DNA from: Candidatus Omnitrophota bacterium
Lineage (GTDB): Bacteria; Omnitrophota; Gorgyraeia; 2-01-FULL-45-10
DNA: 64,000 nucleotides
NCBI GenBank assembly: GCA_028699255.1
Contig: JAQVUX010000005.1
Coordinates: 35,944 to 99,943 of the forward strand
Reading direction: 5' to 3'
The stretch's first letter is position 1. The number at the start of each line of letters is the position of its first letter. The notes below the pieces were generated by a model. It worked only from the letters and a program-made list of their open reading frames with translations. It was not told the origin of the DNA and searched no databases. Shown here piece by piece: positions 6,911 to 60,941 of the stretch. The position numbers and the translations under genes are program-made.

Positions 6911-7386
6911 TTTGAAGAAGTCGGCCTATAAGCCGGGTTCTGTCCGCCATATACCATTCGGCGCAATGCGCCTCAAATACATGACAGGATATTCATCTAT
7001 CTGGCCCCGCCATTACTGACGGGGTCTAGCGACCTTACCCGCCTCGACACCGACGTATTTTCGATAGGAGCGAGCAACTCCTGATTCGAGGCCTATTTGG
7101 TCTTGCTCCGCGCAGAGATTGCCTCGTTTCACCCTGTCCCGCTTTTGGCGAAACAGACTCGTCTCTGTGGCTCTTGCCGTCGTCAAAAACGACGGCACGC
7201 GCTATAACGCTTTGTCGACGTCAGAGACGTCGACATGCGCGGGCAATATCAGAGATATTGCCCAGCACAATCCTCACCTTTCGATGGGCGGTCGTTAACC
7301 GCTGCGCCGCTCTCCGGAGCCCGGACTTTCCTCCCTAACCCTTTACTTCCGTAAAGCGCAAGGCGAATATCCGGCCGGCTTCTTCA
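6911..7386 (-). ncRNA. rnpB: RNase P RNA, bacterial type A
   Basis: The minus strand carries GGGAGGAAAGTCCGGGCTCC (P4 5' half) near 7320-7340, AGGGTGAAACGAGG, and ACAGAACCCGGCTTATAGGCCGACTTCTTC near 6914-6945. The 3' P1 strand pairs with GAAGAAGCCGGCC at the 5' end. No ORF is required to explain this region. Confidence 0.9.
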
Positions 7387-8583: not shown

Positions 8584-8660
8584 TGGTGGACGCGAGGGGA
8601 CTTGAACCTCTGACCTCTGCGATGTGAGCGCAGCGCTCTAACCAGCTGAGCTACGCGTCC
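8584..8660 (-). tRNA. tRNA-Val (anticodon CAC)
   Basis: The reverse complement GGACGCGTAGCTCAGCTGGTTAGAGCGCTGCGCTCACATCGCAGAGGTCAGAGGTTCAAGTCCCCTCGCGTCCACCA folds as a cloverleaf with one A-C mismatch in the T stem. The CCA end is encoded. Confidence 0.85.
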
Positions 8661-8699
8661 CCAGGGTTTTTATTTTCTGAACCCTCGGTTTTCCTCAAA

Positions 8700-8932
8700 A
8701 TTTCCGGAGAAAATTTCATAGAAAATCGAAGTATCTTAGACTCCAGGACCCGAAAACTTTCTTCGAAAAGTTTTATCAATATACCGATTTTTCAGAGAAA
8801 AATCGGTATATCTTAGACTCCAGGACCTGAAAATCTTTTTCGAAAGATTTTCGTTAATCCTAATTTTTCGGAGAAAAATTAGGATATCTTAGACTCCAGG
8901 ACCCGAAAACTTTCTTCGAAAAGTTTTCGGAG
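8700..8932. repeat. array of 3 units of a tRNA-proximal structured repeat (hairpin - TATCTTAGACTCCAGGACC core - hairpin)
   Basis: Three about 80-bp units lie between tRNA-Met and tRNA-Val. The core is identical in all three. The hairpin stems differ but stay complementary: ccgatttttCAGAGaaaaatcgg versus cctaatttttCGGAGaaaaattagg, and gaaaactttCTTCGAaaagttttc versus gaaaatctttTTCGaaagattttc. Confidence 0.8.
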
Positions 8933-8934
8933 TA

Positions 8935-9011
8935 TGGTGGGCCCGCAAGGATTTGAACCTTGGACCAAGAGATTATGAGTCTCCTGCTCTGCCAGACTGA
9001 GCTACAGGCCC
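8935..9011 (-). tRNA. tRNA-Met (anticodon CAT; elongator type or possibly tRNA-Ile2, not initiator)
   Basis: The reverse complement GGGCCTGTAGCTCAGTCTGGCAGAGCAGGAGACTCATAATCTCTTGGTCCAAGGTTCAAATCCTTGCGGGCCCACCA is a perfect cloverleaf. G1-C72 rules out an initiator tRNA. Confidence 0.85.
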
Positions 9012-9050
9012 ACGAAACACTATCAATTAAAACAACAAACAACAGATAAA

Positions 9051-9140
9051 GCTACGGCTCTGCCAGACTGCCCCGCCATCGGTCTTACTCGAAGCGGGGT
9101 CCCGCCCCCTGTCAAACTCCTGGCGGGAAGCTACAGGCCC
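9051..9140 (-). pseudogene. tRNA-Met 5'-half pseudo-copy interrupted by a 57-nt GC-rich palindromic insert
   Basis: The minus strand reads GGGCCTGTAGCT[57 nt]CAGTCTGGCAGAGCcgtagc. This reproduces nt 1-12 and the D-loop of the adjacent tRNA-Met, but it lacks the anticodon and T arms. Confidence 0.5.
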
Positions 9141-9309
9141 TATAAATTTTCTATGAAATTAGAGGTTATTATACTCAAACCACAGCAGGATGTAAAGATG
9201 ATTTTAGAGGAGATACTACTTGCGTATCCTTCGGCGTTTAAGGCGGCGCGTTGCGAGGCGTCTCATCTTTCTGGTGTTTTTCTTTGGCATATGGTAGTCC
9301 TTTCTTTAA

Positions 9310-9923: not shown

Positions 9924-9967
9924 TGTAAATACCTCCTTTCAGTGAAATTATAATGTCGATGGTCAGA

Positions 9968-10008
9968 AAAAAAACCGCAAGGCGAAAGCTTCTCTACCAT
10001 GCGGTTCA
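9968..10008 (-). terminator. hairpin plus U8 in the csp leader, also downstream of rpoD (attenuator/terminator)
   Basis: The minus strand reads AACCGCATGGTAGAGAAGCTTTCGCCTTGCGGTTTTTTTT. It lies about 25 nt after the predicted csp transcription start and about 135 nt after the rpoD stop. Confidence 0.55.
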
Positions 10009-10067: not shown

Positions 10068-10143
10068 CTATTATTTTATATTTCTAAAAACTTTTCAAAG
10101 AAAGTTTTTAGATACTGGAGTTTGAGGTATTTTCCGAGAAAAC

Positions 10144-11790
10144 CTACTCACCTATCCCCATCGCCAGAAAATTCTTAAGTTTCCTCGACCGGGTCGGGTG
10201 CCTGAGTTTTCGCAGGGCCTTCGCCTCTATCTGCCTGACGCGCTCGCGGGTAACTTTAAATACCGAACCTACCTCTTCCAGCGTTCTTGGATAACCATCG
10301 CCTATACCGAATCTAAGGCGCAAGACTTTTTTCTCGCGCTCGGTAAGAGTATCCAGAACATCGTCCATCTGCTCTCTAAGCATCGAATACGCCGTCGCGT
10401 TCGCCGGCGATATCGCGCGCTTATCTTCGATGAAATCACCGAAATGTGTATCGCCCTCGTCACCTATCGGTGTCTGCAGGCTTATCGGTTCCTGCGCTAT
10501 CTTGAGTATGCCCCTCACCTTCTCGACGGGCATCCGCATCTTATGCGCGATCTCTTCCGGGGTCGGCTCCTTGCCGTTCTGCTGGACAAGCGTCCTGGAG
10601 ACTTTTATCAGCTTATTGATCGTCTCCGTCATATGGACGGGTATCCTTATGGTGCGCGATTGGTCGGCTATCGAGCGCGTGATCGCCTGGCGTATCCACC
10701 AGGTGGCGTAAGTCGAAAATTTGTATCCGCGTTTATATTCGAATTTGTCTACAGCCTTCATGAGGCCTATGTTGCCTTCCTGTATAAGGTCGAGGAAAGA
10801 GAGGCCTCTATTGGTATACTTTTTCGCTATGCTTACGACGAGCCTTAAGTTCGCGGCGACAAGCTCTTTCTTCGCTTTATTGAATTTTACCTCGGCACTG
10901 CGGACAAGCTTGAAGTGTTCCCGGACAGCGCTTATCGACTCGCCAAATTCGTTCTCGATCTTTCTCTTGCGCTTCGAGTGCTCCTTAACCGCTTCCCTGT
11001 CCTTTTTCTTGCGCGCGCTCGCTATCTTCGCGAGAACCCTGGAATATTCTTCGAGATACTCTTCTATCTTCTTCACCATCTCCTCGACGACATTCATGCC
11101 GAGGTTCATCTCTTTTATAAGTGCGGCTATGCGTTCCTTACTGCGCGCCTGCTGTAGACCGCTTATGAGACGCTCAAGCTTCTTCTTGAACCGGCCGCCT
11201 TTGAACCGCGCGTCGATATTCATAAACTCTTCTTCGTTGAGTTCACTGCGGAGTATTTTTTCGGCCACTTCTATTGCTTTATATTTGGAGATCCTGACGG
11301 CAAGAACCGCGTCCCGGAATTTATATTCGGCTTCTTTTATTCGCTGGGCTATTTCGAGCTCTTCTTTTCGTGTCAAAAGCGCTATCTGCCCCATCTGCCG
11401 CAGATACATCTTAACCGGGTCATCGACATGGGCCAACTTAACAACCTCTTCTTTTTCCGGCTCTTCCTTCTTCTCTTCGGAGCGCTCTTCTTCGACAGCC
11501 TCTTTGGCCAGATCCTCTTCACTGTCCACGAGCCGTATATTCTCATCCCCGAGTATGCCCAGTATCTCATCGATCTCTTCGGATGATACAATATTCACCG
11601 GGAGTATGTTATTAACCTCCTCGAACGTAAGATGGCCCTTCTCTTTACCAAGGGCGATAAGCTCGGTTAAACCTTTTACGCGCTTCTTTTTACCCTGAAG
11701 ATCGGCGTTGTTTTCACCGGAAGCTTTATCGACAGCCTGAAAAACAGCCGGCTTACTTTTCATCTTTGCGGGTACTCTCTTTTTAAACAT
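10144..11790 (-). CDS. rpoD: RNA polymerase primary sigma factor sigma-70
   Basis: 548 aa with an acidic region 1.1, regions 2-4 and the C-terminal helix-turn-helix ([18 protein letters not shown]). It follows dnaG. Confidence 0.95.
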
Positions 11791-36432: not shown

Positions 36433-38676
36433 TTAAAAATATTCCGATCGCTCTATCTCGTCTTCAGGATTATCGTCTTTAGCGACAGTTTCATCCTGTA
36501 CGGGCGGCGTGGCAGGCTTTACGTCATCTTCATTGGTAGTGAGCCGTATCTGGCTCGGCTCTTCGCCTGAACCTTGAGCAGGAATAACGATCTCTTCTTT
36601 GGTTTTTTTGATTTCCGGAGTTTCAGCCGCAACTTCAGTGGCGCCGGTTGTGGTATCTGCCACAACAACGGCTTCCTTCTCAGCAGGTTGAGCTTCAGGC
36701 GTAATCTGAGGCGCGGAGGCAGTTGAAGCTTCCGGGGTAACCGGAGTTTCGGAAACAGCCGGAGCTTCAGAAACGATCGGAGTTTCGGAAATTACCGGGG
36801 CCTCTTCCTTAATCAGCTCTTGCGTCTTCGCTTTTTTGGTAAAAGGATTCCATAATTTCATTCCAGAGCTTTTTGATTTTTTTGATTCTTCGGTAGAAAC
36901 AGCTTCCGCCTTAGCTTTCTTGGCAAACGGATTCCACATCTTCACAGGTTGCGATTTCGGTTTTTCCTGTTCCTGGGTAACTACCGGCTCGCCCGTCTTC
37001 TTAGGCTTATCGAAGCTGAAAGGTGCCCACGCCTTCTTGGCAGGCTTCGCGCCTTCCACATTCGCGCTTTCCGTTTCGGTGGAAACAGTTTCCACCCTGG
37101 CTTTCTTGGCAAAGGGATTCCACATCTTCACGGGTTGCGATTTCGGCTTCGGCTCTTTATATGCGGCCACCGACTCTTCCTGAGAAATTGGCGCCGCCTC
37201 TACCTTCTCGGACTTGTCAAAACTTAAAGGAGTCCATGGTTTTTTGGTTGGCTTCGCGCTTTCCGCTTCGGTAGAAACAGTTTCCGCCTTAGCTTTCTTG
37301 ACAAACGGGTTCCACATCTTCACAGGTTGCGATTTCGGTTTTTCCTGTTCCTGGGTAACTACCGGCTCGCCCGTCTTCTTAGGCTTATCGAAGCTGAAAG
37401 GTGCCCACGCCTTCTTGGCAGGGTTCGCGCCTTCCACATTCGCGCTTTCCGTTTCGGTGGAAACAGTTTCCGCCTTGGCTTTCTTGGCAAAGGGATTCCA
37501 CATCTTCACGGGTTGCGATTTCGGCTTAGCATCTTCCGCCGCATCAGCAGTTTTCGCCTGCTTTTTAAAACTAAACGGCGCCCACGCTTTCTTCTTGGTC
37601 ACTTCTTCACCGGTGGAATCTTTTTTAGCCGATTTTTGTGACTTTACAAATTTTAAAGAGAACGGGCTGGTCTTCCTCTCAAGCCTCTCCGTTAAAGCGC
37701 TTATCTTCGAATTCGCCAGGTCCACATACGAACTTTCCGGATATGTACTGAGAATATCTTTGTAATATATTATCGCGGCCTGGTAACGCCCCTGCTTCTC
37801 GTAAAACTGCGCTGTAAGAAGCGATTTTTCCGAAGCCTTGTCCTTCAGGCGCTGTATTGTTTTGTCCGCTTCCTTAGATAAGGACCTGTCCCTATTCTCC
37901 CGGCTAAAATCTTCGAAAGCCCTGATAGCCTTTTGCGTCGGCTCAACGTCATAAGCCGGCTTAAGAGACGCTTTGTATGCGCAATCGGCCACCTCAAACT
38001 TCGCCTTATCCACAAACGTCGATGTGGGATAATCGTCAAGTATCTTCTGGAAAGCCTGTATCGCTTCGTCGTAACGCTCGGCCTTCTTCGTCGCAAGACC
38101 CATCCTGAACTGCGCCTCATCGGCAAGTCTGCCATACGGGGCGTTCTCCACTACCTTCTTATATATCTCGATAGCTCGGTCGAGCGAAGTCAATATATCG
38201 GCTCCAAGAACCTTGGGACTTTCTTTGACCATAAACATATTCGCTATATTAAACTCCCGGGCCACTATCTCGTCCAGGTTCTCGATGTGCGGGAAATTAT
38301 CTATGGCTTTCTGGTAATTCTGGTAGGCAATAAAAAACTTGTTCATGCTTTCATAACAGAGGCCCACATAATACTGGGACTTGGAGGCATATTCGGAATA
38401 TTCGTATTGTTTTGTGAGTTTTTCGAATTCGGTAGCGGCGCGCTGAAAATCCTTGGAGTTATAAAATGTCATCGCCCACTCGAACTGTTCTTTCGGAGTG
38501 TCTTTAACGGCATTCTTGGGATTTATGAATTTTTTAGTTCCGGGCGTCCAGACCCAGTAGGCCAGGGCCGTATTGGAAAAGAGAAATAATAAAGCTACTG
38601 CGGCTATCGCTATACTTCTGCAAAAAAATTCTTTTTTCATCCGCAAATTATACCACAGGCTGGAGTGTTTAGTCAA
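36433..38676 (-). CDS. BamD/YfiO-like TPR protein with a roughly 450-aa lysine-rich repetitive C-terminal extension
   Basis: The N-terminal 300 aa are TPR repeats. The C-terminus carries KPKSQPVKMWNPFAKKAKAETVSTE five times and KKAWAPFSFDKPKKTGEPVVTQEQE three or four times. Confidence 0.7.
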   Translation of the reverse strand: MTKHSSLWYNLRMKKEFFCRSIAIAAVALLFLFSNTALAYWVWTPGTKKFINPKNAVKDTPKEQFEWAMTFYNSKDFQRAATEFEKLTKQYEYSEYASKSQYYVGLCYESMNKFFIAYQNYQKAIDNFPHIENLDEIVAREFNIANMFMVKESPKVLGADILTSLDRAIEIYKKVVENAPYGRLADEAQFRMGLATKKAERYDEAIQAFQKILDDYPTSTFVDKAKFEVADCAYKASLKPAYDVEPTQKAIRAFEDFSRENRDRSLSKEADKTIQRLKDKASEKSLLTAQFYEKQGRYQAAIIYYKDILSTYPESSYVDLANSKISALTERLERKTSPFSLKFVKSQKSAKKDSTGEEVTKKKAWAPFSFKKQAKTADAAEDAKPKSQPVKMWNPFAKKAKAETVSTETESANVEGANPAKKAWAPFSFDKPKKTGEPVVTQEQEKPKSQPVKMWNPFVKKAKAETVSTEAESAKPTKKPWTPLSFDKSEKVEAAPISQEESVAAYKEPKPKSQPVKMWNPFAKKARVETVSTETESANVEGAKPAKKAWAPFSFDKPKKTGEPVVTQEQEKPKSQPVKMWNPFAKKAKAEAVSTEESKKSKSSGMKLWNPFTKKAKTQELIKEEAPVISETPIVSEAPAVSETPVTPEASTASAPQITPEAQPAEKEAVVVADTTTGATEVAAETPEIKKTKEEIVIPAQGSGEEPSQIRLTTNEDDVKPATPPVQDETVAKDDNPEDEIERSEYF
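36843..37560. repeat. intragenic tandem DNA repeats (about 378-bp period with about 186-bp sub-period) inside the TPR gene
   Basis: 36890-37150 and 37268-37528 are about 97% identical over about 260 bp. A 60-nt motif TTTCTTGGCAAASGGATTCCACATCTTCACRGGTTGCGATTTCGG occurs at least four times. Confidence 0.85.
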
Positions 38677-44563: not shown

Positions 44564-44612
44564 CAACCGCGTAGGTTAACCATGCGTTGACCTCGAACAA
44601 CCTACGCGGTTG
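44564..44612. repeat. REP inverted pair (CAACCGCGTAGGTTA ... AACCTACGCGGTTG)
   Basis: Two 14-15 nt REP arms are separated by a 20-nt loop. The element lies between leuS and nfo and overlaps the nfo stop region. Confidence 0.8.
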
Positions 44613-45456: not shown

Positions 45457-45461
45457 AAAAT

Positions 45462-45730
45462 TTCTCCGAAATTTCCAAAACTTTCTTTGAAAAGTTTCGT
45501 GAGTGCTTCTATTTTTCAGAGAAAAATAGAAGTATCTGAAACTCCAGGACCTGAAAACTTTCTTCGAAAAGTTTACTCAGTATACCGATTTTTCAGAGAA
45601 AAATCGGTATATCTTAGACTCCAGGACCTGAAAACTTTCTTCGAAAAGTTTTCAGAGTACTTCGATTTTTTCTCCGAAAAAATCGAAACTTGTCAAACCC
45701 CAGGACCCCAAAATTTCCCGAAATTTTGGG
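45462..45730. repeat. array of 3 units of the tRNA-proximal structured repeat, 3' of tRNA-Leu
   Basis: The unit cores are TATCTGAAACTCCAGGACC, TATATCTTAGACTCCAGGACC and ACTTGTCAAACCCCAGGACC. Each core is flanked by hairpins with covarying stems, for example CCAAAATTTCCCGAAATTTTGG in place of GAAAACTTTCTTCGAAAAGTTTTC. Confidence 0.8.
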
Positions 45731-45733
45731 CTT

Positions 45734-45820
45734 GTGGTGCCGAGGGAGGGAGTTGAACCCTCATATCCGTGAGGAAATCGGTTTTTGAGACCGACGCGTA
45801 TGCCAGTTCCGCCACCTCGG
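45734..45820 (-). tRNA. tRNA-Leu (anticodon CAA)
   Basis: The reverse complement GCCGAGGTGGCGGAACTGGCATACGCGTCGGTCTCAAAACCGATTTCCTCACGGATATGAGGGTTCAACTCCCTCCCTCGGCACCA is a class II tRNA with a long variable arm and an encoded CCA. Confidence 0.85.
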
Positions 45821-45834
45821 CACGATTATGCATG

Positions 45835-45892
45835 TCAAAACAACCGCGTAGGTTATCTATGATTACCGCATGCAAACCTACGCGGTTGTTTT
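45835..45892. repeat. REP inverted pair forming a 19-bp stem hairpin
   Basis: CAAAACAACCGCGTAGGTT and its complement AACCTACGCGGTTGTTTTG are separated by a 20-nt loop, just 5' of tRNA-Leu. Confidence 0.8.
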
Positions 45893-46047
45893 GCAATACG
45901 GTTATTCCACAATATTCCTTGACGGAAAGTATAACACACCGCCGCCAATTCCTCAACTACAAACCGCCGCAATATTGCCACAACACCGCCACCTTGTCAA
46001 ACCGCCGCCTACACGCAACCGCGGAGGTTGGCCAGTTATTTCAGTCA

Positions 46048-46064
46048 GATAACCTACGCGGTTG
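46048..46064. repeat. solo REP copy (GATAACCTACGCGGTTG)
   Basis: An exact REP core lies 11 nt beyond the stop of the 1089-aa ORF. Confidence 0.7.
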
Positions 46065-46074
46065 TACCGACAGG

Positions 46075-49000
46075 TTACGCCGCGGACATCACGTTATCGC
46101 TTGCCATCTTATTAAACCGGCGTTTGTCATTATCCAATAATTTTGCGGTTGGCAGTTTGAATGGCACGCTTCGCACGAAATTATTGATATCGGCCTGGGA
46201 CTGCTCTTTCATGGATAACGGCCGGCGGGCAAGAAACTCAAATATTGCTTTTAGACGGCCAATATCATCCAGACGGCGAATTCTTAACGCAAGGATAATC
46301 CCCTCGGGTTGAACATCGTTTTGGCAAGGATCAAAGGCAAGCGCCCTTATACCAATGCCGCTATCCAGGACTTTGTTAACGATCTCCGTACTCGGACAAG
46401 CAACATCGAATTCCACCTCGTAACCCGGGTATTCTATCGCGTAATCAGCTCTCTTCCTATCGATCAATCTCTTCACCTCGTCCACAAAATCGGATGGGCC
46501 ACAAACCGGCAGTAAGGCAACCTTTTCGCCGCATTTCGCGTCCTTTTCCATCTCCTGCTGAAGCAGGGCCCTTAACATATCTCTTTGTATATAAGGAAAT
46601 ATTTCCTCCGCGGCTATATGGCACAGTATCGTTTTCGTTTTCCCGAGATCCTTTGGCCGATATTTTTTATTCTCTTCGTGTATCCGACCGGCCTCGGCAA
46701 CGGCAGAATCGGTTATAATAGCCGGTTGCCCGTTCGGCGTTCTGCGTACTGTGTTCTGGGTCATGCCCGCTTTGCCGCGCCCGGCCGCGGCTTCCGTTTC
46801 CCCTTGCCCCTGAACCTTTGACACTACCTGTCCCGCCTCCCTCTCCATGGGCAGGAGCCCATTTTCCGTCGGGGCGGCCTGTCTTACATGTACATGCGCC
46901 GGTGCATGCACATGTAGAAGAGCGTCATTATCATACGTCAATGGCTGATCCGACGGTTTTAAAGCGCCCGGCTTCTTCGGCTGTTTATAATAACGATTGC
47001 CATCTAAGGGCCCGCCATTCCCGAGCGGCCCGGGATCGGCGCCGGGGCCGTGGGGAAGATTAATATAACGGACACCGTCGAATTTACCGGAGGCGCGATC
47101 ATACATGGATATCGCGAAAGGGCGCTCGGAAAGTCGTATCATTCCCCCACTCCCTTCTTCATAAAATTGAACTACGAGATGCGCTTTTTCGGTCGTCAGA
47201 CACGCCCTGACACTGCCCGCCGGTCTTGCGGCACAAAAATTATCTCTTAACTCGATGGCCGCGAAAAGGATATGCGCCACCCCCGATAGTCCGACATCAT
47301 CGCCGGTATCTATAAACTGAATAGCGTCCGCACCGTCCATATACAGGGTGGCACTGCCGCATGGATATTCTATTTGGCGAAAATTTTTCTCAATCATCTC
47401 TGAAAGAATTTTCGCCAGTACTTCCCGCTCCCCGGGATTTCTGACCAAAGAATACGGTATATTTTCAAGTAAAGGCTGATTTCTTTCTTCCTCATTACTA
47501 TTATCAAGATAAAGGCTGAAAGTATACCCACCGGACTGATTCGTTTGTACAAAATGGGGATGCATTTTTTTAAATGTAACCCCGCCGGACAAGAGTAAAG
47601 GCGTTATGGTATCGATAAACTCATGGGTAGGCGCTCGCATATCTTCATCCAGAAGCGGCATATACATCAGAAATTTATACTGCGACTCTGCGCCGACGGC
47701 GTTGATATACGCAACCTGATAATCATAAGTTCCTCGCGCCACTACGTCCTGCCATCTCTCAGCCTTCTCTATCTTGTAGTCCAGATACTTTTCCTGTTCT
47801 AATACATCCAACACCATCATCTTGGCTAATACATACCTAAACTCATAGCTGTTCTTCTCCGAAAGTATAAATAAGTGCCTTATGCGCTGATGCAGATATT
47901 TGGCATTTAAAAAAGCTATTAGTTGCTCTAAGGCAATTTTAGTCTCATATTTCTGCCCAGGATCCATATCATAATTATATAAGTTGTCATGAGATTCTTT
48001 TAATAAACGATAAAAATCCGGTTCATATACTTGATCATTAATATCCGGATGAGAGACCTTCCGAAAGTGCTCATAGTTTTCCTCAAAAACTCCAACCATC
48101 CCGTCTTGATCATTTACAGGGATCGGCCTGATGAAATCCTCAAACTTTTTAAAGCAATCCGGAGGAAGCGCTTTCCTGAGAAAAGTAGTTTCTATCTTTC
48201 TTGGTTGAATAGGTATGTTGGAAGGGACGGATACGGCCGATGATAACGAATCTGTTAATCGAAGTATTATTTTAACAGCCCATCGGGAGTAGCTGGCAGG
48301 AAAAAATCGGCCCTGGAAAATTGTATCCGATATCCGGTAAGCCCGGGGATGATTATCGATCAACATCCGGCAGAATTTTTCACTTTCCAGTAAGCCTGAC
48401 ATGACGTCGTTTATTAGTACAAAAAATGCCATCGATACCACACTTAAAACGCCTCCTGCGGCGAAATCTAAAACCGGCGCTAACGCAAAAACCCCTGCCC
48501 TGCGTTCAAAATCGGACGGCCCCGTCCGCTCGCCGTATATTGCTTTCATCCTAACCGCGTAAGTATTACCGGAGGGATATTTGGGGTCAACTTCCTGACG
48601 AGAGGTTTCGTCCGCACGCCCGAACACTGACCGATCCGGCGACATTGAGTCGCCCTCAACCTCCGGCGGTCGTAAATATCGCCTGACGCCAGAGTTGCTC
48701 CCGGGGTCCGTCGGGCCGGGCAGGCCTTTAGGCATGTTGGCATAGGAAACCATTCGTGTATCGTCTGCCGAGTCACGCCTTTTGCGGAACCACAGCCCTT
48801 TGAGGCCGGGGAGATCCGTGGACTCGAGATTACGCCGGTCATCCGGAGTTTTAATTCCAAATTTTACCAACTCTTCGTGGGCAATATTTTCATAATCCTT
48901 TATAAAAAATAGATCAATCATCTTTCCGTCGTTCGCAAATTTAAAGGTAACGTATTTATAATCCTTCCCTGCCACCTTGCGGGATCGCCACGTTTCATCA

Positions 49001-49344
49001 ATAAACACGGATTGGTCGGGAAATAATTCGCTATTGAGGCGATTGATCGTTCTTCGAATAATCACATCGTCCGGAAGGTTCGGGGCCATAAATAATTTGC
49101 CCAGCGTATCGGCCGCCAAATTCAACTTCGCCCTGTATTTAAAATCTATTTCGTTTTTAATATCGAAAAGGGTGAAGCGGGATTGCGGGGCAAGTGTTGC
49201 CTGTTGCGGCGTTTGGACTTGCGGCGCCGCCCAGGATAGGTCGTTGAGCAGGAATAGGCAGACCAGGATTAGTGAGATTATTTTATATAGATTGCTTCGC
49301 CGCCACGCCTTAGGCGTATCGTCTCGCAATGACTTTTTATACAT
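46075..49344 (-). CDS. large orphan secreted or membrane-anchored protein (1089 aa) with no recognisable domain
   Basis: It has an N-terminal signal or anchor (IISLILVCLFLLNDLSWAAP) and a His-rich segment HVHAPAHVHV. No catalytic motif is identifiable by eye. Confidence 0.6.
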   Translation of the reverse strand: MYKKSLRDDTPKAWRRSNLYKIISLILVCLFLLNDLSWAAPQVQTPQQATLAPQSRFTLFDIKNEIDFKYRAKLNLAADTLGKLFMAPNLPDDVIIRRTINRLNSELFPDQSVFIDETWRSRKVAGKDYKYVTFKFANDGKMIDLFFIKDYENIAHEELVKFGIKTPDDRRNLESTDLPGLKGLWFRKRRDSADDTRMVSYANMPKGLPGPTDPGSNSGVRRYLRPPEVEGDSMSPDRSVFGRADETSRQEVDPKYPSGNTYAVRMKAIYGERTGPSDFERRAGVFALAPVLDFAAGGVLSVVSMAFFVLINDVMSGLLESEKFCRMLIDNHPRAYRISDTIFQGRFFPASYSRWAVKIILRLTDSLSSAVSVPSNIPIQPRKIETTFLRKALPPDCFKKFEDFIRPIPVNDQDGMVGVFEENYEHFRKVSHPDINDQVYEPDFYRLLKESHDNLYNYDMDPGQKYETKIALEQLIAFLNAKYLHQRIRHLFILSEKNSYEFRYVLAKMMVLDVLEQEKYLDYKIEKAERWQDVVARGTYDYQVAYINAVGAESQYKFLMYMPLLDEDMRAPTHEFIDTITPLLLSGGVTFKKMHPHFVQTNQSGGYTFSLYLDNSNEEERNQPLLENIPYSLVRNPGEREVLAKILSEMIEKNFRQIEYPCGSATLYMDGADAIQFIDTGDDVGLSGVAHILFAAIELRDNFCAARPAGSVRACLTTEKAHLVVQFYEEGSGGMIRLSERPFAISMYDRASGKFDGVRYINLPHGPGADPGPLGNGGPLDGNRYYKQPKKPGALKPSDQPLTYDNDALLHVHAPAHVHVRQAAPTENGLLPMEREAGQVVSKVQGQGETEAAAGRGKAGMTQNTVRRTPNGQPAIITDSAVAEAGRIHEENKKYRPKDLGKTKTILCHIAAEEIFPYIQRDMLRALLQQEMEKDAKCGEKVALLPVCGPSDFVDEVKRLIDRKRADYAIEYPGYEVEFDVACPSTEIVNKVLDSGIGIRALAFDPCQNDVQPEGIILALRIRRLDDIGRLKAIFEFLARRPLSMKEQSQADINNFVRSVPFKLPTAKLLDNDKRRFNKMASDNVMSAA

Positions 49345-49467: not shown

Positions 49468-49506
49468 CAACCGCGTAGGTTACCGCGTAGGTTACCTACG
49501 CGGTTG
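49468..49506. repeat. REP cluster (two direct copies and one inverted copy) followed by a T7 run
   Basis: CAACCGCGTAGGTTA CCGCGTAGGTTA CCTACGCGGTTG ATTTTTTT, lying upstream of tRNA-Ala and the 1089-aa ORF. Confidence 0.8.
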
Positions 49507-49559: not shown

Positions 49560-49633
49560 GGGGCTGTAGTGAAGAGGGATCACGACACAATGGCATTGTG
49601 TAGTCACGAGTTCGATTCTCGTCAGCTCCACCA
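49560..49633 (+). tRNA. tRNA-Ala (anticodon GGC) with the G3:U70 identity pair
   Basis: GGGGCTGTAGTGAAGAGGGATCACGACACAATGGCATTGTGTAGTCACGAGTTCGATTCTCGTCAGCTCCACCA folds as a cloverleaf. It has a 7-bp acceptor stem with G3:U70, a 4-nt variable loop and an encoded CCA. Confidence 0.75.
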
Positions 49634-49635
49634 TA

Positions 49636-49850
49636 CTCTGAAAACTTTTCGAAGAAAGTTTTCAGGTCCTGCAGTTTCAGATACTTCTATTTTTCCTGAA
49701 ATTTTCGGAGAAAATTTCGAGAAAAATAGAAGGACTCAGGAAACAATACGAAGGAAATTTTAGGGGCCTGGGGTTTGACAAGTTTCTATTTTGCTCCGCA
49801 AAATAGAAGAACTCGAGAAACTTTTCGAAGAAAATCCTCATTCCGCAAGA
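49636..49850. repeat. array of 2-3 units of the tRNA-proximal structured repeat, 3' of tRNA-Ala (opposite orientation on +)
   Basis: GAAAACTTTTCGAAGAAAGTTTTC-AGGTCCTGCAGTTTCAGATA-hairpin, then GGGGCCTGGGGTTTGACAAG-hairpin. These units mirror units 1 and 3 of the array next to tRNA-Leu. Confidence 0.75.
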
Positions 49851-60216: not shown

Positions 60217-60267
60217 CAACCGCGTAGGTTACCGCGTAGGTTACCGCGTAGGTTACCTACGCGGTTG
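60217..60267. repeat. REP cluster 5' of the RAYT gene (three direct copies and one inverted copy)
   Basis: CAACCGCGTAGGTTA CCGCGTAGGTTA CCGCGTAGGTTA CCTACGCGGTTG, lying 14 nt before the RAYT ATG and inside its predicted 5' UTR. Confidence 0.85.
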
Positions 60268-60281
60268 ACAAGGAGGGCATT

Positions 60282-60896
60282 ATGATTTATCATATTTTTA
60301 ACAAAAGTATATCGAATTTTACAATATACAACGATGCTTTTGAGTACTTGCGGATGCTCACAGCTATTCAGTATTACCAATCAAATCCGGGGAAAACCAG
60401 TTTTTCGCGATTTATTAGTTTATTAGAAAAAGAAAAAACGCAAATTCCAACAGAAAATAAGATTGTTGATGTAATCGCGTATTGTCTTATGCCTACCCAC
60501 TTCCATTTCATCTTAAATGAACAAAAAGAAGGCGGAATAGCTTCTTTTACTAACAACCTGCTTAATAGCTATACTCGTTATTTCAATATAAAACATAATA
60601 GAAAAGGGCCTTTATGGCAGGGAAGATCCCGAAGGGTATTAGTAAAGACCGATGAACAACTGCTACACCTCACAAGATACATACATTTGAATCCTGTTAC
60701 GTCATATTTGGTTGACAACCCGGGGAAATGGCCATATTCCTCTTATGATGAGTATTTAAAAATACCAAAAGATCTACAGATATGTAAATATGCTGATTTA
60801 ATAGATATGCAACCAACAATATATATGAATTTCGTAACCGATAGAATTAATTATCAGCGAGAATTAGCAAAAATAAAGGACTTACTCCTTGAGTGA
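60282..60896 (+). mobile_element. REP-associated tyrosine transposase (RAYT; IS200/IS605 TnpA Y1 family)
   Basis: 204 aa with the HuH motif CLMPTHFHFIL and a catalytic Tyr in LTRYIHLNPV. An AGGAGGG RBS is present. The gene is flanked by inverted REP clusters and its coding sequence is AT-rich (about 33% GC). Confidence 0.85.
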
Positions 60897-60902
60897 CCTG
60901 TC

Positions 60903-60941
60903 AACCTACGCGGTAACCTACGCGGTTACCGCGTAGGTTGA
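60903..60941. repeat. REP cluster 3' of the RAYT gene (mirror image of the upstream cluster)
   Basis: CAACCTACGCGG TAACCTACGCGG TTACCGCGTAGGTTG. Confidence 0.85.

Follow-up and report, generated by a model that had tools for sequence, protein, structure and literature searches.

The stretch of DNA analysed here, which we refer to as the window, is a 64-kb part of contig JAQVUX010000005.1 from a metagenome-assembled genome (MAG) of an uncultured Candidatus Omnitrophota bacterium, and it is the host DNA which was read. We found that it carries a family of tandem repeats, each unit of which combines two hairpins with a 19-nt core, and that the arrays of this family lie directly 3' of tRNA genes. 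The tRNA genes of the window were placed by ARAGORN and Rfam, and three of the four are followed by an array (A, B or C) which starts at the first base after the CCA of the tRNA (CCA+1). The tRNA genes and arrays are:

8584-8660, minus strand: tRNA-Val(CAC), found by ARAGORN and Rfam, downstream of array A
8693-8934, minus strand: array A, three units, from the first base after the tRNA-Met CCA to 32 nt before tRNA-Val, this 32-nt spacer lying between unit A2 and tRNA-Val
8935-9011, minus strand: tRNA-Met(CAT), found by ARAGORN and Rfam, with array A after its CCA
45457-45734, minus strand: array B, three full units and a partial, from the tRNA-Leu CCA to the ATG (45456) of nfo on the same strand
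45735-45821, minus strand: tRNA-Leu(CAA), found by ARAGORN and Rfam, with array B after its CCA
49560-49633, plus strand: tRNA-Ala(GGC), found by ARAGORN and Rfam, with array C after its CCA
49634-49840, plus strand: array C, two full units and a partial, from the tRNA-Ala CCA to the stop codon of a convergent gene

Structure and position of the repeat units

Read in the orientation of the tRNA, a unit consists of a linker, (T)ACTCYG, followed by hairpin B (consensus GAAAACTTT-TCGAAG-AAAGTTTTC), the 19-nt core (canonically GGTCCTGGAGTCTAAGATA) and hairpin A (for example TACCGATTTTT-CTCTG-AAAAATCGGTA). The window holds eight full copies and two terminal partials. Full units are 75-79 bp long, which is shorter than the roughly 85 bp given in an earlier description made from the sequence alone (the sequence-only reading). 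The three copies which that reading had counted in array A were recovered, whereas its three in array B proved to be three full units and one partial and its two to three in array C two full units and one partial. The individual units, together with a degenerate solo copy elsewhere in the window, are:

8857-8934, minus strand: unit A0 (E = 1.1e-21), linker TACTCCG, core GGTCCTGGAGTCTAAGATA, hairpin A stem TCCTAATTTTT/AAAAATTAGGA with loop CTCCG
8780-8856, minus strand: unit A1, hairpin B with a compensated change, GAAAATCTTT/AAAGATTTTC
8693-8779, minus strand: unit A2, hairpin B and core normal, nested hairpin GAAATTTTCTCCGGAAATTTT in place of hairpin A
45660-45734, minus strand: unit B0, type II (E = 3.4e-14), starting at tRNA-Leu CCA+1, hairpin B variant CCCAAAATTT/AAATTTTGGG, core GGTCCTGGGGTTTGACAAG, hairpin A loop flipped to CGGAG
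45581-45659, minus strand: unit B1, canonical (E = 5.5e-23)
45506-45580, minus strand: unit B2, core GGTCCTGGAGTTTCAGATA, hairpin A stem CTTCTATTTTT/AAAAATAGAAG
45457-45505, minus strand: terminal partial of array B, linker and hairpin B followed by a small hairpin, GGAAATTTCGGAGAAATTTT
49634-49732, plus strand: unit C0 (E = 3e-20), starting at tRNA-Ala CCA+1, core GGTCCTGCAGTTTCAGATA, hairpin A loop holding an inserted 25-nt nested hairpin
49733-49809, plus strand: unit C1, type II (E = 1.1e-18), core GGGCCTGGGGTTTGACAAG, hairpin B degenerate
49810-49840, plus strand: terminal partial of array C, linker and half of hairpin B, abutting the stop codon of a convergent 188-aa gene
10079-10147, plus strand: degenerate solo unit, hairpin B, core-like ACTGGAGTTTGAGGTA and a short hairpin

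The E values listed are those of a hidden Markov model (HMM) built from the eight full units. Across the 64 kb this model matched the units (E = 1e-14 to 1e-23), the solo copy (10084-10134, E = 2e-7) and the two terminal partials and nothing else, and a covariance model search of the window gave the same result. The 19-mer core was found six times with up to three mismatches, against 0.03 occurrences expected, and Tandem Repeats Finder (TRF) called arrays with a period of 76-77 at 8714-8927 and 45477-45670. On these three lines of evidence the family lies where the sequence-only reading had placed it. Two independent Sequence Read Archive (SRA) assemblies (L031 and L032) end in or contain these units, and the arrays are therefore not assembly artefacts. 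The contigs L015, L031 and L032 all end in or near arrays, showing that the arrays break short-read assemblies at tRNA loci.

The core had been described as nearly invariant. It is identical in five of the eight units, and the other three have variant cores (GGTCCTGSAGTTTCAGATA and GGKCCTGGGGTTTGACAAG). Nested hairpins occur in units C0 and A2, and we confirmed that loops flip between CTCCG and CGGAG.

We also examined the pairing of the stems, using 500 shuffles and slid alignments as controls. Hairpin A occurs with five different stem sequences and 93.6% of its cells are paired. Two-sided compensatory changes were found in 6 of the 13 pairs of hairpin A and in 5 of the 11 pairs of hairpin B, including a C-G/U-A column pair which is swapped in hairpin B of unit A1. 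The covariation score of hairpin A was 0.528 in comparison to 0.239 in shuffles, none of which (0/500) reached it, and at most 0.128 in slid controls. Both hairpins lay above the shuffled and slid controls in covariation score and in the number of cells changed on both sides (0/500 shuffles). It should be noted that a further statistic, the number of pairs with a two-sided change, was matched by 29/500 shuffles for hairpin A and 11/500 for hairpin B. Array A had a folding z-score of -6.1, and its centroid structure was made up of the unit hairpins with the cores single-stranded. In hairpin B of the solo copy, a one-base difference between two strains makes or breaks a pair. The repeat is real, its hairpins have been kept through paired mutations, and the sequence-only reading was right about the structure.

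The window contains 27 intergenic gaps of at least 20 bp, and the arrays fill exactly the three which are located 3' of a tRNA (chance 1 in 2925). All three arrays share the same phase, each beginning at CCA+1. Copies were found at four sites in the 64 kb, of which three are tRNA 3' flanks; the fourth, the solo copy, has the rpoD stop codon (10144) on one side and the csp promoter on the other, and it runs opposite to the direction in which these two genes are transcribed. The claim that the unit always lies 3' of a tRNA in the orientation of that tRNA consequently stands for the arrays and fails for the solo copy. Similarly, the units had been placed beside all four tRNA genes, which is correct for the 3' sides of tRNA-Met, tRNA-Leu and tRNA-Ala, but for tRNA-Val only the 5' side has an array, and just 9 nt separate its own 3' end from a CT398-like gene. 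Neither a random distribution of the units nor a lack of compensatory changes, both of which the sequence-only reading had named as evidence against itself, was seen in the sequence examined.

By gene layout, two of the arrays lie in putative transcription units led by a tRNA, one running through tRNA-Met, array A, tRNA-Val and further genes and the other through tRNA-Leu, array B, nfo and leuS. No canonical sigma-70 promoter or intrinsic terminator was found inside arrays A or B, and as both are located between a tRNA and a same-strand gene without a promoter, they must be read through. The Shine-Dalgarno sequence of nfo is the GGAG in the loop of the small hairpin GGAAATTTCGGAGAAATTTT at the end of array B. 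The genome does use canonical terminators, for instance after csp, and has a terminator-like repetitive extragenic palindromic (REP) hairpin at 49482-49504.

Relatives and strain variation

The comparison set consisted of the syntenic loci of relatives with RpoD 85-91% identical to that of the window, plus two near-identical strains, and stretches of ~20 kb were read per syntenic locus. Among the relatives' loci examined, the 77-nt family was found only in the population of the window and a 97.5%-identical strain. Relatives carry other multi-hairpin modules, unrelated to the unit or rearranged, in the same place, starting at the CCA+1 of the tRNA. In L016 a module of ~150 nt follows both tRNA-Met and tRNA-Val, the two copies being 84% identical to each other, and this module family was also found 3' of tRNA-Met in L012 and L013. 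In L010 a different module of 105 nt follows tRNA-Met and tRNA-Val, with 99% identity between the copies. The trailer of tRNA-Met in L018 is homologous to the trailer of tRNA-Ala in L033, which comes from the same sample, and the modules of L018 are shuffled in L021. The relatives' trailers covary as well, with two-sided changes in 10/49 and 7/48 predicted pairs.

By eye, the trailers of L012, L013 and L016 contain modules of the window unit in the same order, for which the covariance model gave weak matches (E = 0.03-0.2). These are a core-like loop GCCGCTGGAGTTAAG, the hairpin A 3' arm AAAATCG, a TGAG linker and hairpin B as AAAACYTTTT…AAAARGTTTT. The modules thus predate this species, although their arrangement has changed. 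The tRNA-Met 5' leader of L012 also has a related small hairpin, AATTTCGGAGAAATT. The covariance model additionally matched the rpoD 3' end of L023, L026, L027 and L028 (22.7 bits), but this sequence is coding (…RSRKLKNF…) and was judged to be a chance resemblance to the core.

One relative shows the site without any trailer. In L035 (GCA_028715345.1) tRNA-Ala is followed by 17 nt, tRNA-Leu, 9 nt (TCGGATAAT) and the nfo ATG, and the end of array B in the window, TCGGAGAAATTTTATG, retains the ancestral spacer seen in L035. Array B is thus an insertion between the CCA and the ancestral spacer, at an operon junction, and because the gap between tRNA-Leu and nfo is only 9 nt in L035, read-through is the ancestral state. 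The repeat was found to be absent 3' of tRNA-Val in the window, L012 and L018, and from the tRNA-Ala/tRNA-Leu/nfo operon of L035.

Around a 4.1-kb segment containing tRNA-Leu, a 1089-aa open reading frame (ORF) and tRNA-Ala, arrays B and C stand as inverted repeats of ~200-280 bp. Inversions could arise through this repeat pair, and tRNA-Ala and tRNA-Leu are in fact oriented differently when the window, L033 and L035 are compared. The 1089-aa ORF (46075-49344, minus strand), which lies between tRNA-Leu and tRNA-Ala with REP doublets on its flanks, had no Pfam match; it is an insertion, as the two tRNA genes are only 17-28 nt apart in L033 and L035.

Within the genome, the units are mosaic between loci. 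Core and hairpin A show 100% identity between unit A1 (tRNA-Met locus) and unit B1 (tRNA-Leu locus), but hairpin B only 86%, and subtypes are common to B2 and C0 and to B0 and C1. Copy number varies between strains, as the sequence-only reading had thought worth checking: in the 97.5%-identical strain L032, array B is one unit shorter and has a novel junction, the missing stretch comprising the core and hairpin A of B2, the linker of B3 and part of hairpin B. Between strains, 12 differences per 100 nt were counted in the solo copy, against ~2.5 in its flanks and 0 in the adjacent csp leader, so that it diverges 4-5 times faster than its flanks.

Rearrangement was also found upstream of tRNA-Met, where the following features lie between the promoter and the intact gene:

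9012-9141, minus strand: partial 5' duplicate of tRNA-Met (GGGCCTGTAGCT…CAGTCTGGCAGAGC)
9057-9069 and 9129-9141: fragments of this duplicate beside module X
9070-9128, minus strand: module X, possibly related to the repeat, a 59-nt G+C-rich double hairpin which interrupts the duplicate

The loop of module X (CCAGGAGTTTGACAGG) resembles the type II core, and the HMM gave a weak match close by (9128-9157, E = 0.19). Strain L015, which is 97.5% identical, lacks the whole block of ~118 nt that comprises the duplicate and module X. L021, L023 and L027 likewise have insertions and partial duplicates of tRNAs, and the tRNA loci of this clade are rearrangement hot spots.

ORFs encoding GIY-YIG proteins of 86-94 aa lie between the tRNA-Met trailer and tRNA-Val in L010 (14611-14871), L018 (12708-12977) and L021 (11096-11380). 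The stop codon of this ORF is inside the 5' end of tRNA-Val in L010 and L018, while in L021 the ORF reaches a truncated copy of tRNA-Val, with another tRNA-Val, this one complete, 170 nt beyond it. A link between these ORFs and the trailers was rejected, since L033 and L016 have trailers without such ORFs and none was found in the window.

Nature of the repeat family

We compared the units to described RNA families and repeats. With 4227 Rfam models, only RNase P RNA and the four tRNAs reached the gathering threshold in the window, and a permissive scan of array A and the L016 trailers returned sub-threshold chance matches only, which agrees with the statement of the sequence-only reading that the unit belongs to no named RNA family. 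An exact-core scan of 185,579 species-representative GTDB genomes, JGI metagenomes and IMG/VR gave single chance matches without hairpin context, and in a blastn search against plasmids and phages nothing matched the repeat. No described element matches the units, and the closest likenesses are ones of behaviour and not of family membership.

REP sequences and the bacterial interspersed mosaic elements (BIMEs) built from them have a 20-40-nt imperfect palindrome after GTAG and a cognate REP-associated tyrosine transposase (RAYT) gene with inverted flanking copies. The units resemble the BIME/REP sequences of E. coli, extragenic hairpin modules which occur singly or in tandem, are co-transcribed at transcription-unit 3' ends, are specific to a species and have complementary stems. 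The units differ in lacking alternating orientation and the GTAG mark, which was not found on either strand of the unit, and in being confined to tRNA 3' flanks in the sequence examined. A classical REP/RAYT system is present in the window at 60218-60938, with GTAG palindromes (ACCGCGTAGGTT) dispersed beyond it. Its RAYT-like ORF (60282-60896, plus strand, 204 aa) matches PF01797 Y1_Tnp (IS200-like, 23.8 bits), has the motifs THFHF (HUH) and YIHLNPV, and has, on either side, inverted clusters of the 12-mer ACCGCGTAGGTT, a G+C-rich REP and not the 77-nt unit. As the flanking REP is unrelated, this RAYT was rejected as the mobiliser of the unit. The GTAG palindrome has 18 matches in the window against 0.2 expected, with doublets at 44565-44611, 45842-45887, 46017-46063 and 49469-49505. 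The first of these spans the nfo stop codon just upstream of leuS, and the others precede tRNA-Leu and tRNA-Ala and follow the 1089-aa ORF.

Neisseria intergenic mosaic elements (NIMEs) consist of RS blocks separated by dRS3 repeats, which are inverted repeats and targets for the integration of phages or insertion sequences (IS). Like the arrays, they alternate a short conserved repeat (~20 bp) with variable blocks of 50-150 bp which are shuffled between loci and vary between strains; unlike them, the 19-mer is asymmetric, and the variable blocks of the window are hairpins and tRNA-linked, with no sequence similarity. BOX elements of S. pneumoniae, with the layout boxA-boxB(n)-boxC and, to our knowledge, no known transposase, are likewise modular, intergenic inside transcription units, predicted to form stable RNA structure and built around a module in variable tandem number. 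However, the modules here are different ones and lack the A and C end modules, and BOX elements are dispersed genome-wide and not at tRNA 3' ends. The behaviour typical of NIME and BOX sequences (recombination of modules between loci, strain-variable tandem number and location in transcribed intergenic spacers) was found here without any sequence relationship.

The distal repeats of E. coli tyrT and the 3' external transcribed spacer (ETS) of leuZ (3'ETS-leuZ) share with the arrays a position directly 3' of a tRNA gene and co-transcription with it. The tyrT repeats are 178 bp long, are present in ~3 copies, include the tRNA 3' end and arose by unequal crossing-over, whereas the units here contain no tRNA sequence and are common to different tRNAs; 3'ETS-leuZ, for its part, is one spacer only, and its small RNA (sRNA) partner is known. 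A closer likeness in position is a lineage-specific archaeal palindrome which lies at a fixed distance after about half of the tRNA genes of its genome and has been proposed as a 3'-maturation signal (PMC5217627). That element is a single 19-bp palindrome without evidence of mosaicism or copy-number variation (PMC5217627), in contrast to the tandem two-hairpin unit with an invariant core found here.

ToxI arrays of type III toxin-antitoxin (TA) systems are likewise tandem short RNA repeats, and cutting at a conserved site would likewise turn the units here into structured RNAs of unit length. ToxI units are, however, 34-40 nt long and stand immediately upstream of an endoribonuclease toxin gene. 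This class was rejected because the genes downstream of the arrays are tRNA-Val and the gene of a CT398-like zinc-ribbon protein, nfo (AP endonuclease 2) or a convergent gene. CRISPR arrays have direct repeats of 23-55 nt, unique spacers and usually cas genes nearby; they were rejected as well, as the conserved part of the unit is 19 nt, the 58-nt 'spacers' are conserved hairpins common to the loci and there is no adjacent cas gene. No cas, toxN, integrase or GIY-YIG gene adjoins the arrays.

We tentatively favour the reading that the family is a lineage-specific mosaic hairpin repeat which has invaded and expanded in the transcribed spacers 3' of tRNA genes, with BIME/NIME/BOX-like behaviour, and consider this the best candidate while stopping short of calling it probable. 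The reasons for preferring it are that the units are the same among the tRNAs of a genome, are replaced between genomes, are absent at some orthologous sites, are mosaic and copy-variable and lie inside transcription units. Since the L035 junction has no array, the element looks dispensable, and it looks strain-variable rather than like a proven functional RNA. The sequence-only reading, whose interpretation is upheld in part, had argued from selection for structure to a functional RNA or DNA structure, and the step to a functional RNA was not borne out: with absence at the L035 junction, replacement in relatives and mosaicism between loci, the step does not follow, and the pattern fits repeats of the REP/BIME/NIME/BOX type.

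If the family spreads in this way, its modules (hairpin B, the core, hairpin A and the small AAATTTCGGAGAAATTT hairpin) would have been copied between tRNA loci and multiplied in tandem at the DNA level, perhaps by unequal or ectopic recombination, by slippage or possibly by single-strand transposition. Arrays inside tRNA-led units, a layout seen for arrays A and B, would be transcribed, read through and removed in the course of pre-tRNA processing. Each unit, as its pairing indicates, would fold into two perfect A/U-rich hairpins with the core left single-stranded. The stems may be kept because an insert beside a tRNA must fold on itself, sparing the tRNA and the downstream ribosome-binding site from mispairing. 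Alternatively, they may be maintained by intrastrand templated correction, as perfect palindromes can instead be kept by such (quasipalindrome) correction at the DNA level. The core may be retained as the part which is recognised or which recombines, and any benefit would be secondary, be it as a stop for exonucleases, as a spacer or as an entry site for endonucleases between the tRNA and the downstream RNA.

Several observations weigh against this preferred reading. The arrays and all of the relatives' trailers have one fixed orientation and start exactly at CCA+1, a pattern which an RNA-level function would predict equally well. A 19-nt core which is identical in five of the eight units, beside variable stems, points to a sequence-specific partner which the reading does not name. 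The sense strand folds better than the antisense strand in all three arrays (-93 vs -81, -97 vs -86 and -64 vs -61 kcal/mol), partly because the core is G+U-rich. An enzyme that could mobilise the units was not found; the RAYT, with its different repeat, is the sole transposase-like gene of the window. The marks of a miniature inverted-repeat transposable element (MITE) are missing, as no terminal inverted repeats or target-site duplications were found at the array junctions, which run from CCA into TACTC on one side and end in hairpin B on the other. Finally, the restriction to tRNA genes was seen within 64 kb and may not hold genome-wide.

The alternative which comes through best, although we regard it as unlikely, is that the unit is a dedicated cis-acting RNA module of tRNA precursors, in which the hairpins bracket a single-stranded, A/U-rich core serving as a putative site for an endonuclease (of the RNase E/G/Y type) or another protein. 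Cleavage at the core would part the tRNA from the downstream RNA, the hairpins would cap the ends against exonucleases and the tandem copies would be redundant; co-evolution with a trans-acting factor would account for the units being alike inside one genome and unlike from genome to genome. The start at CCA+1 in fixed orientation (3/3 array loci and all relatives' trailers), the invariant core beside covarying stems, the covariation of the relatives' trailers and the better folding of the sense strand are all in its favour, as are the placement of arrays within operons, out of which they need to be processed, and the related hairpin AATTTCGGAGAAATT in the L012 tRNA-Met 5' leader. However, the element is missing from the L035 tRNA-Ala/tRNA-Leu/nfo operon and from the tRNA-Val 3' flank in the window, L012 and L018, and it is fully replaced at orthologous sites between genomes with RpoD of 85-91% identity. 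The inverted solo copy, the tolerance of loop flips and nested insertions and the strain-variable copy number also speak against it. A pseudoknot between the hairpin A loop (CUCCG/CUCUG) and GGAG of the core was considered and rejected: most units could form the pairing, but it is broken in B0 and C0 and is sterically implausible with no spare loop nucleotides.

It is rather doubtful, but worth setting out, that the window and its relatives share an undescribed system of this clade which installs genome-specific multi-hairpin modules exactly at CCA+1, either as a non-autonomous element with site-specific targeting of tRNA 3' ends or as dedicated trailer RNAs co-evolving with a trans-acting factor for processing or binding which reads the core. 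The 77-nt arrays would then be its tandemly amplified form. What is new here is a species-specific mosaic palindromic repeat with an unusual and apparently strict location at tRNA 3' ends. Should the restriction to tRNA genes extend to the whole genome, the family would be a clear example from bacteria of structured repeats tied to the exact tRNA 3' end, in which sister families replace one another at the same position in relatives, and it would offer a handle on the processing of tRNA-led operons in an uncultured, host-dependent phylum, or on a new insertion specificity. If the restriction fails, the family is one more species-specific intergenic repeat.

We consider it improbable that the trailers give rise to regulatory RNAs, meaning structured RNAs which are released and whose repeated cores, like the 3'ETS-leuZ sponge or a CsrB-type decoy, titrate an RNA-binding protein or an sRNA. 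Such a role would suit a single-stranded motif which occurs two to three times per array between stable hairpins, and GGA or GGAG is present in most cores and otherwise in flipped or nested hairpin loops. There is also precedent, as Lalaouna et al. are said to have described functional tRNA 3' external transcribed spacers in 2015. On the other side, the 64 kb contain no complementary partner, only chance matches of 9-10 nt, the cores of the subtypes differ at positions which would pair, and the element is absent in close relatives. The core was rejected as an antisense seed because no complementary site of at least 11 nt was found in the window, and a CsrA-type GGA decoy was rejected because the motif is not conserved, unit C1 being without GGA.

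A still poorer fit is the proposal that the units are tandem terminators or attenuators for strong tRNA promoters, acting in both directions at convergent junctions; a termination module was among the roles suggested by the sequence-only reading. Array C does lie between convergent genes, and the solo copy stands directly after the rpoD stop codon, with hairpin B followed by UUUUUAGAAAUAU in that direction. However, none of the arrays contains a canonical or terminator-like site, although the genome uses such terminators: a G+C-rich stem with a U-tract is lacking, and in the tRNA direction the A/U-rich stems are followed by GGUCC or ACUC. Arrays A and B moreover precede same-strand genes (tRNA-Val and nfo-leuS) lacking their own promoter, so that transcription has to pass through the arrays, as in the ancestral state indicated by the 9-nt tRNA-Leu/nfo junction of L035.

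That the units are protein-binding sites at the DNA level (promoter, iteron, recombinase or phage attachment (att) sites), with either the core or the inverted-repeat arms bound, is barely credible: it can draw on the perfect TTGACA of the type II core, a weak promoter-like site in C1 (TTGACA, 18 nt, CAAAAT) and the arm-spacer-arm layout of hairpins whose spacers flip, but the canonical core has no -35/-10 match or sigma-54 pattern, the 77-bp period is out of phase with the DNA helix, the arrays have no integrase or recombinase gene beside them, and the arm sequences differ among copies, so that one protein could not read all of them. A sigma-70 promoter array of the NsiR1 type was rejected, as the C1 site is the only one found and there is none in the canonical units, and the promoter readings of a TAAGAT -10 box, the type II TTGACA and a sigma-54 pattern fail on spacing and partner hexamers.

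Other features of the window

RNase P RNA of bacterial class A (183 bits; 6913-7382, minus strand) is part of the same-strand string of genes downstream of tRNA-Met, array A, tRNA-Val and the CT398-like and RNase H-like genes. Just upstream of the tRNA-Met promoter, an ORF of 24 codons encoding an arginine/lysine-rich micro-protein (MPKKNTRKMRRLATRRLKRRRIRK) is conserved in all relatives examined (window ~9219-9293, minus strand; L012 6411-6485; L010 12485-12559; L018 12077-12151; L021 10748-10822). Between its promoter and its ribosome-binding site, csp has in its 5' leader a terminator-like hairpin with T8 behind it (ACCGCATGGTAGAGAAGCTTTCGCCTTGCGGTTTTTTTT) that is strictly conserved (window 9930-10000, minus strand; L012 5680-5730; L018 11680-11730) and may be an attenuator or a cold-shock leader element. 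We also found a tandem repeat at 36889-37524 with a period of 186 nt, 3.4 copies and 68% matches (TRF score 724), which is presumably coding and is adjoined by an 18-nt repeat at 36739-36791.

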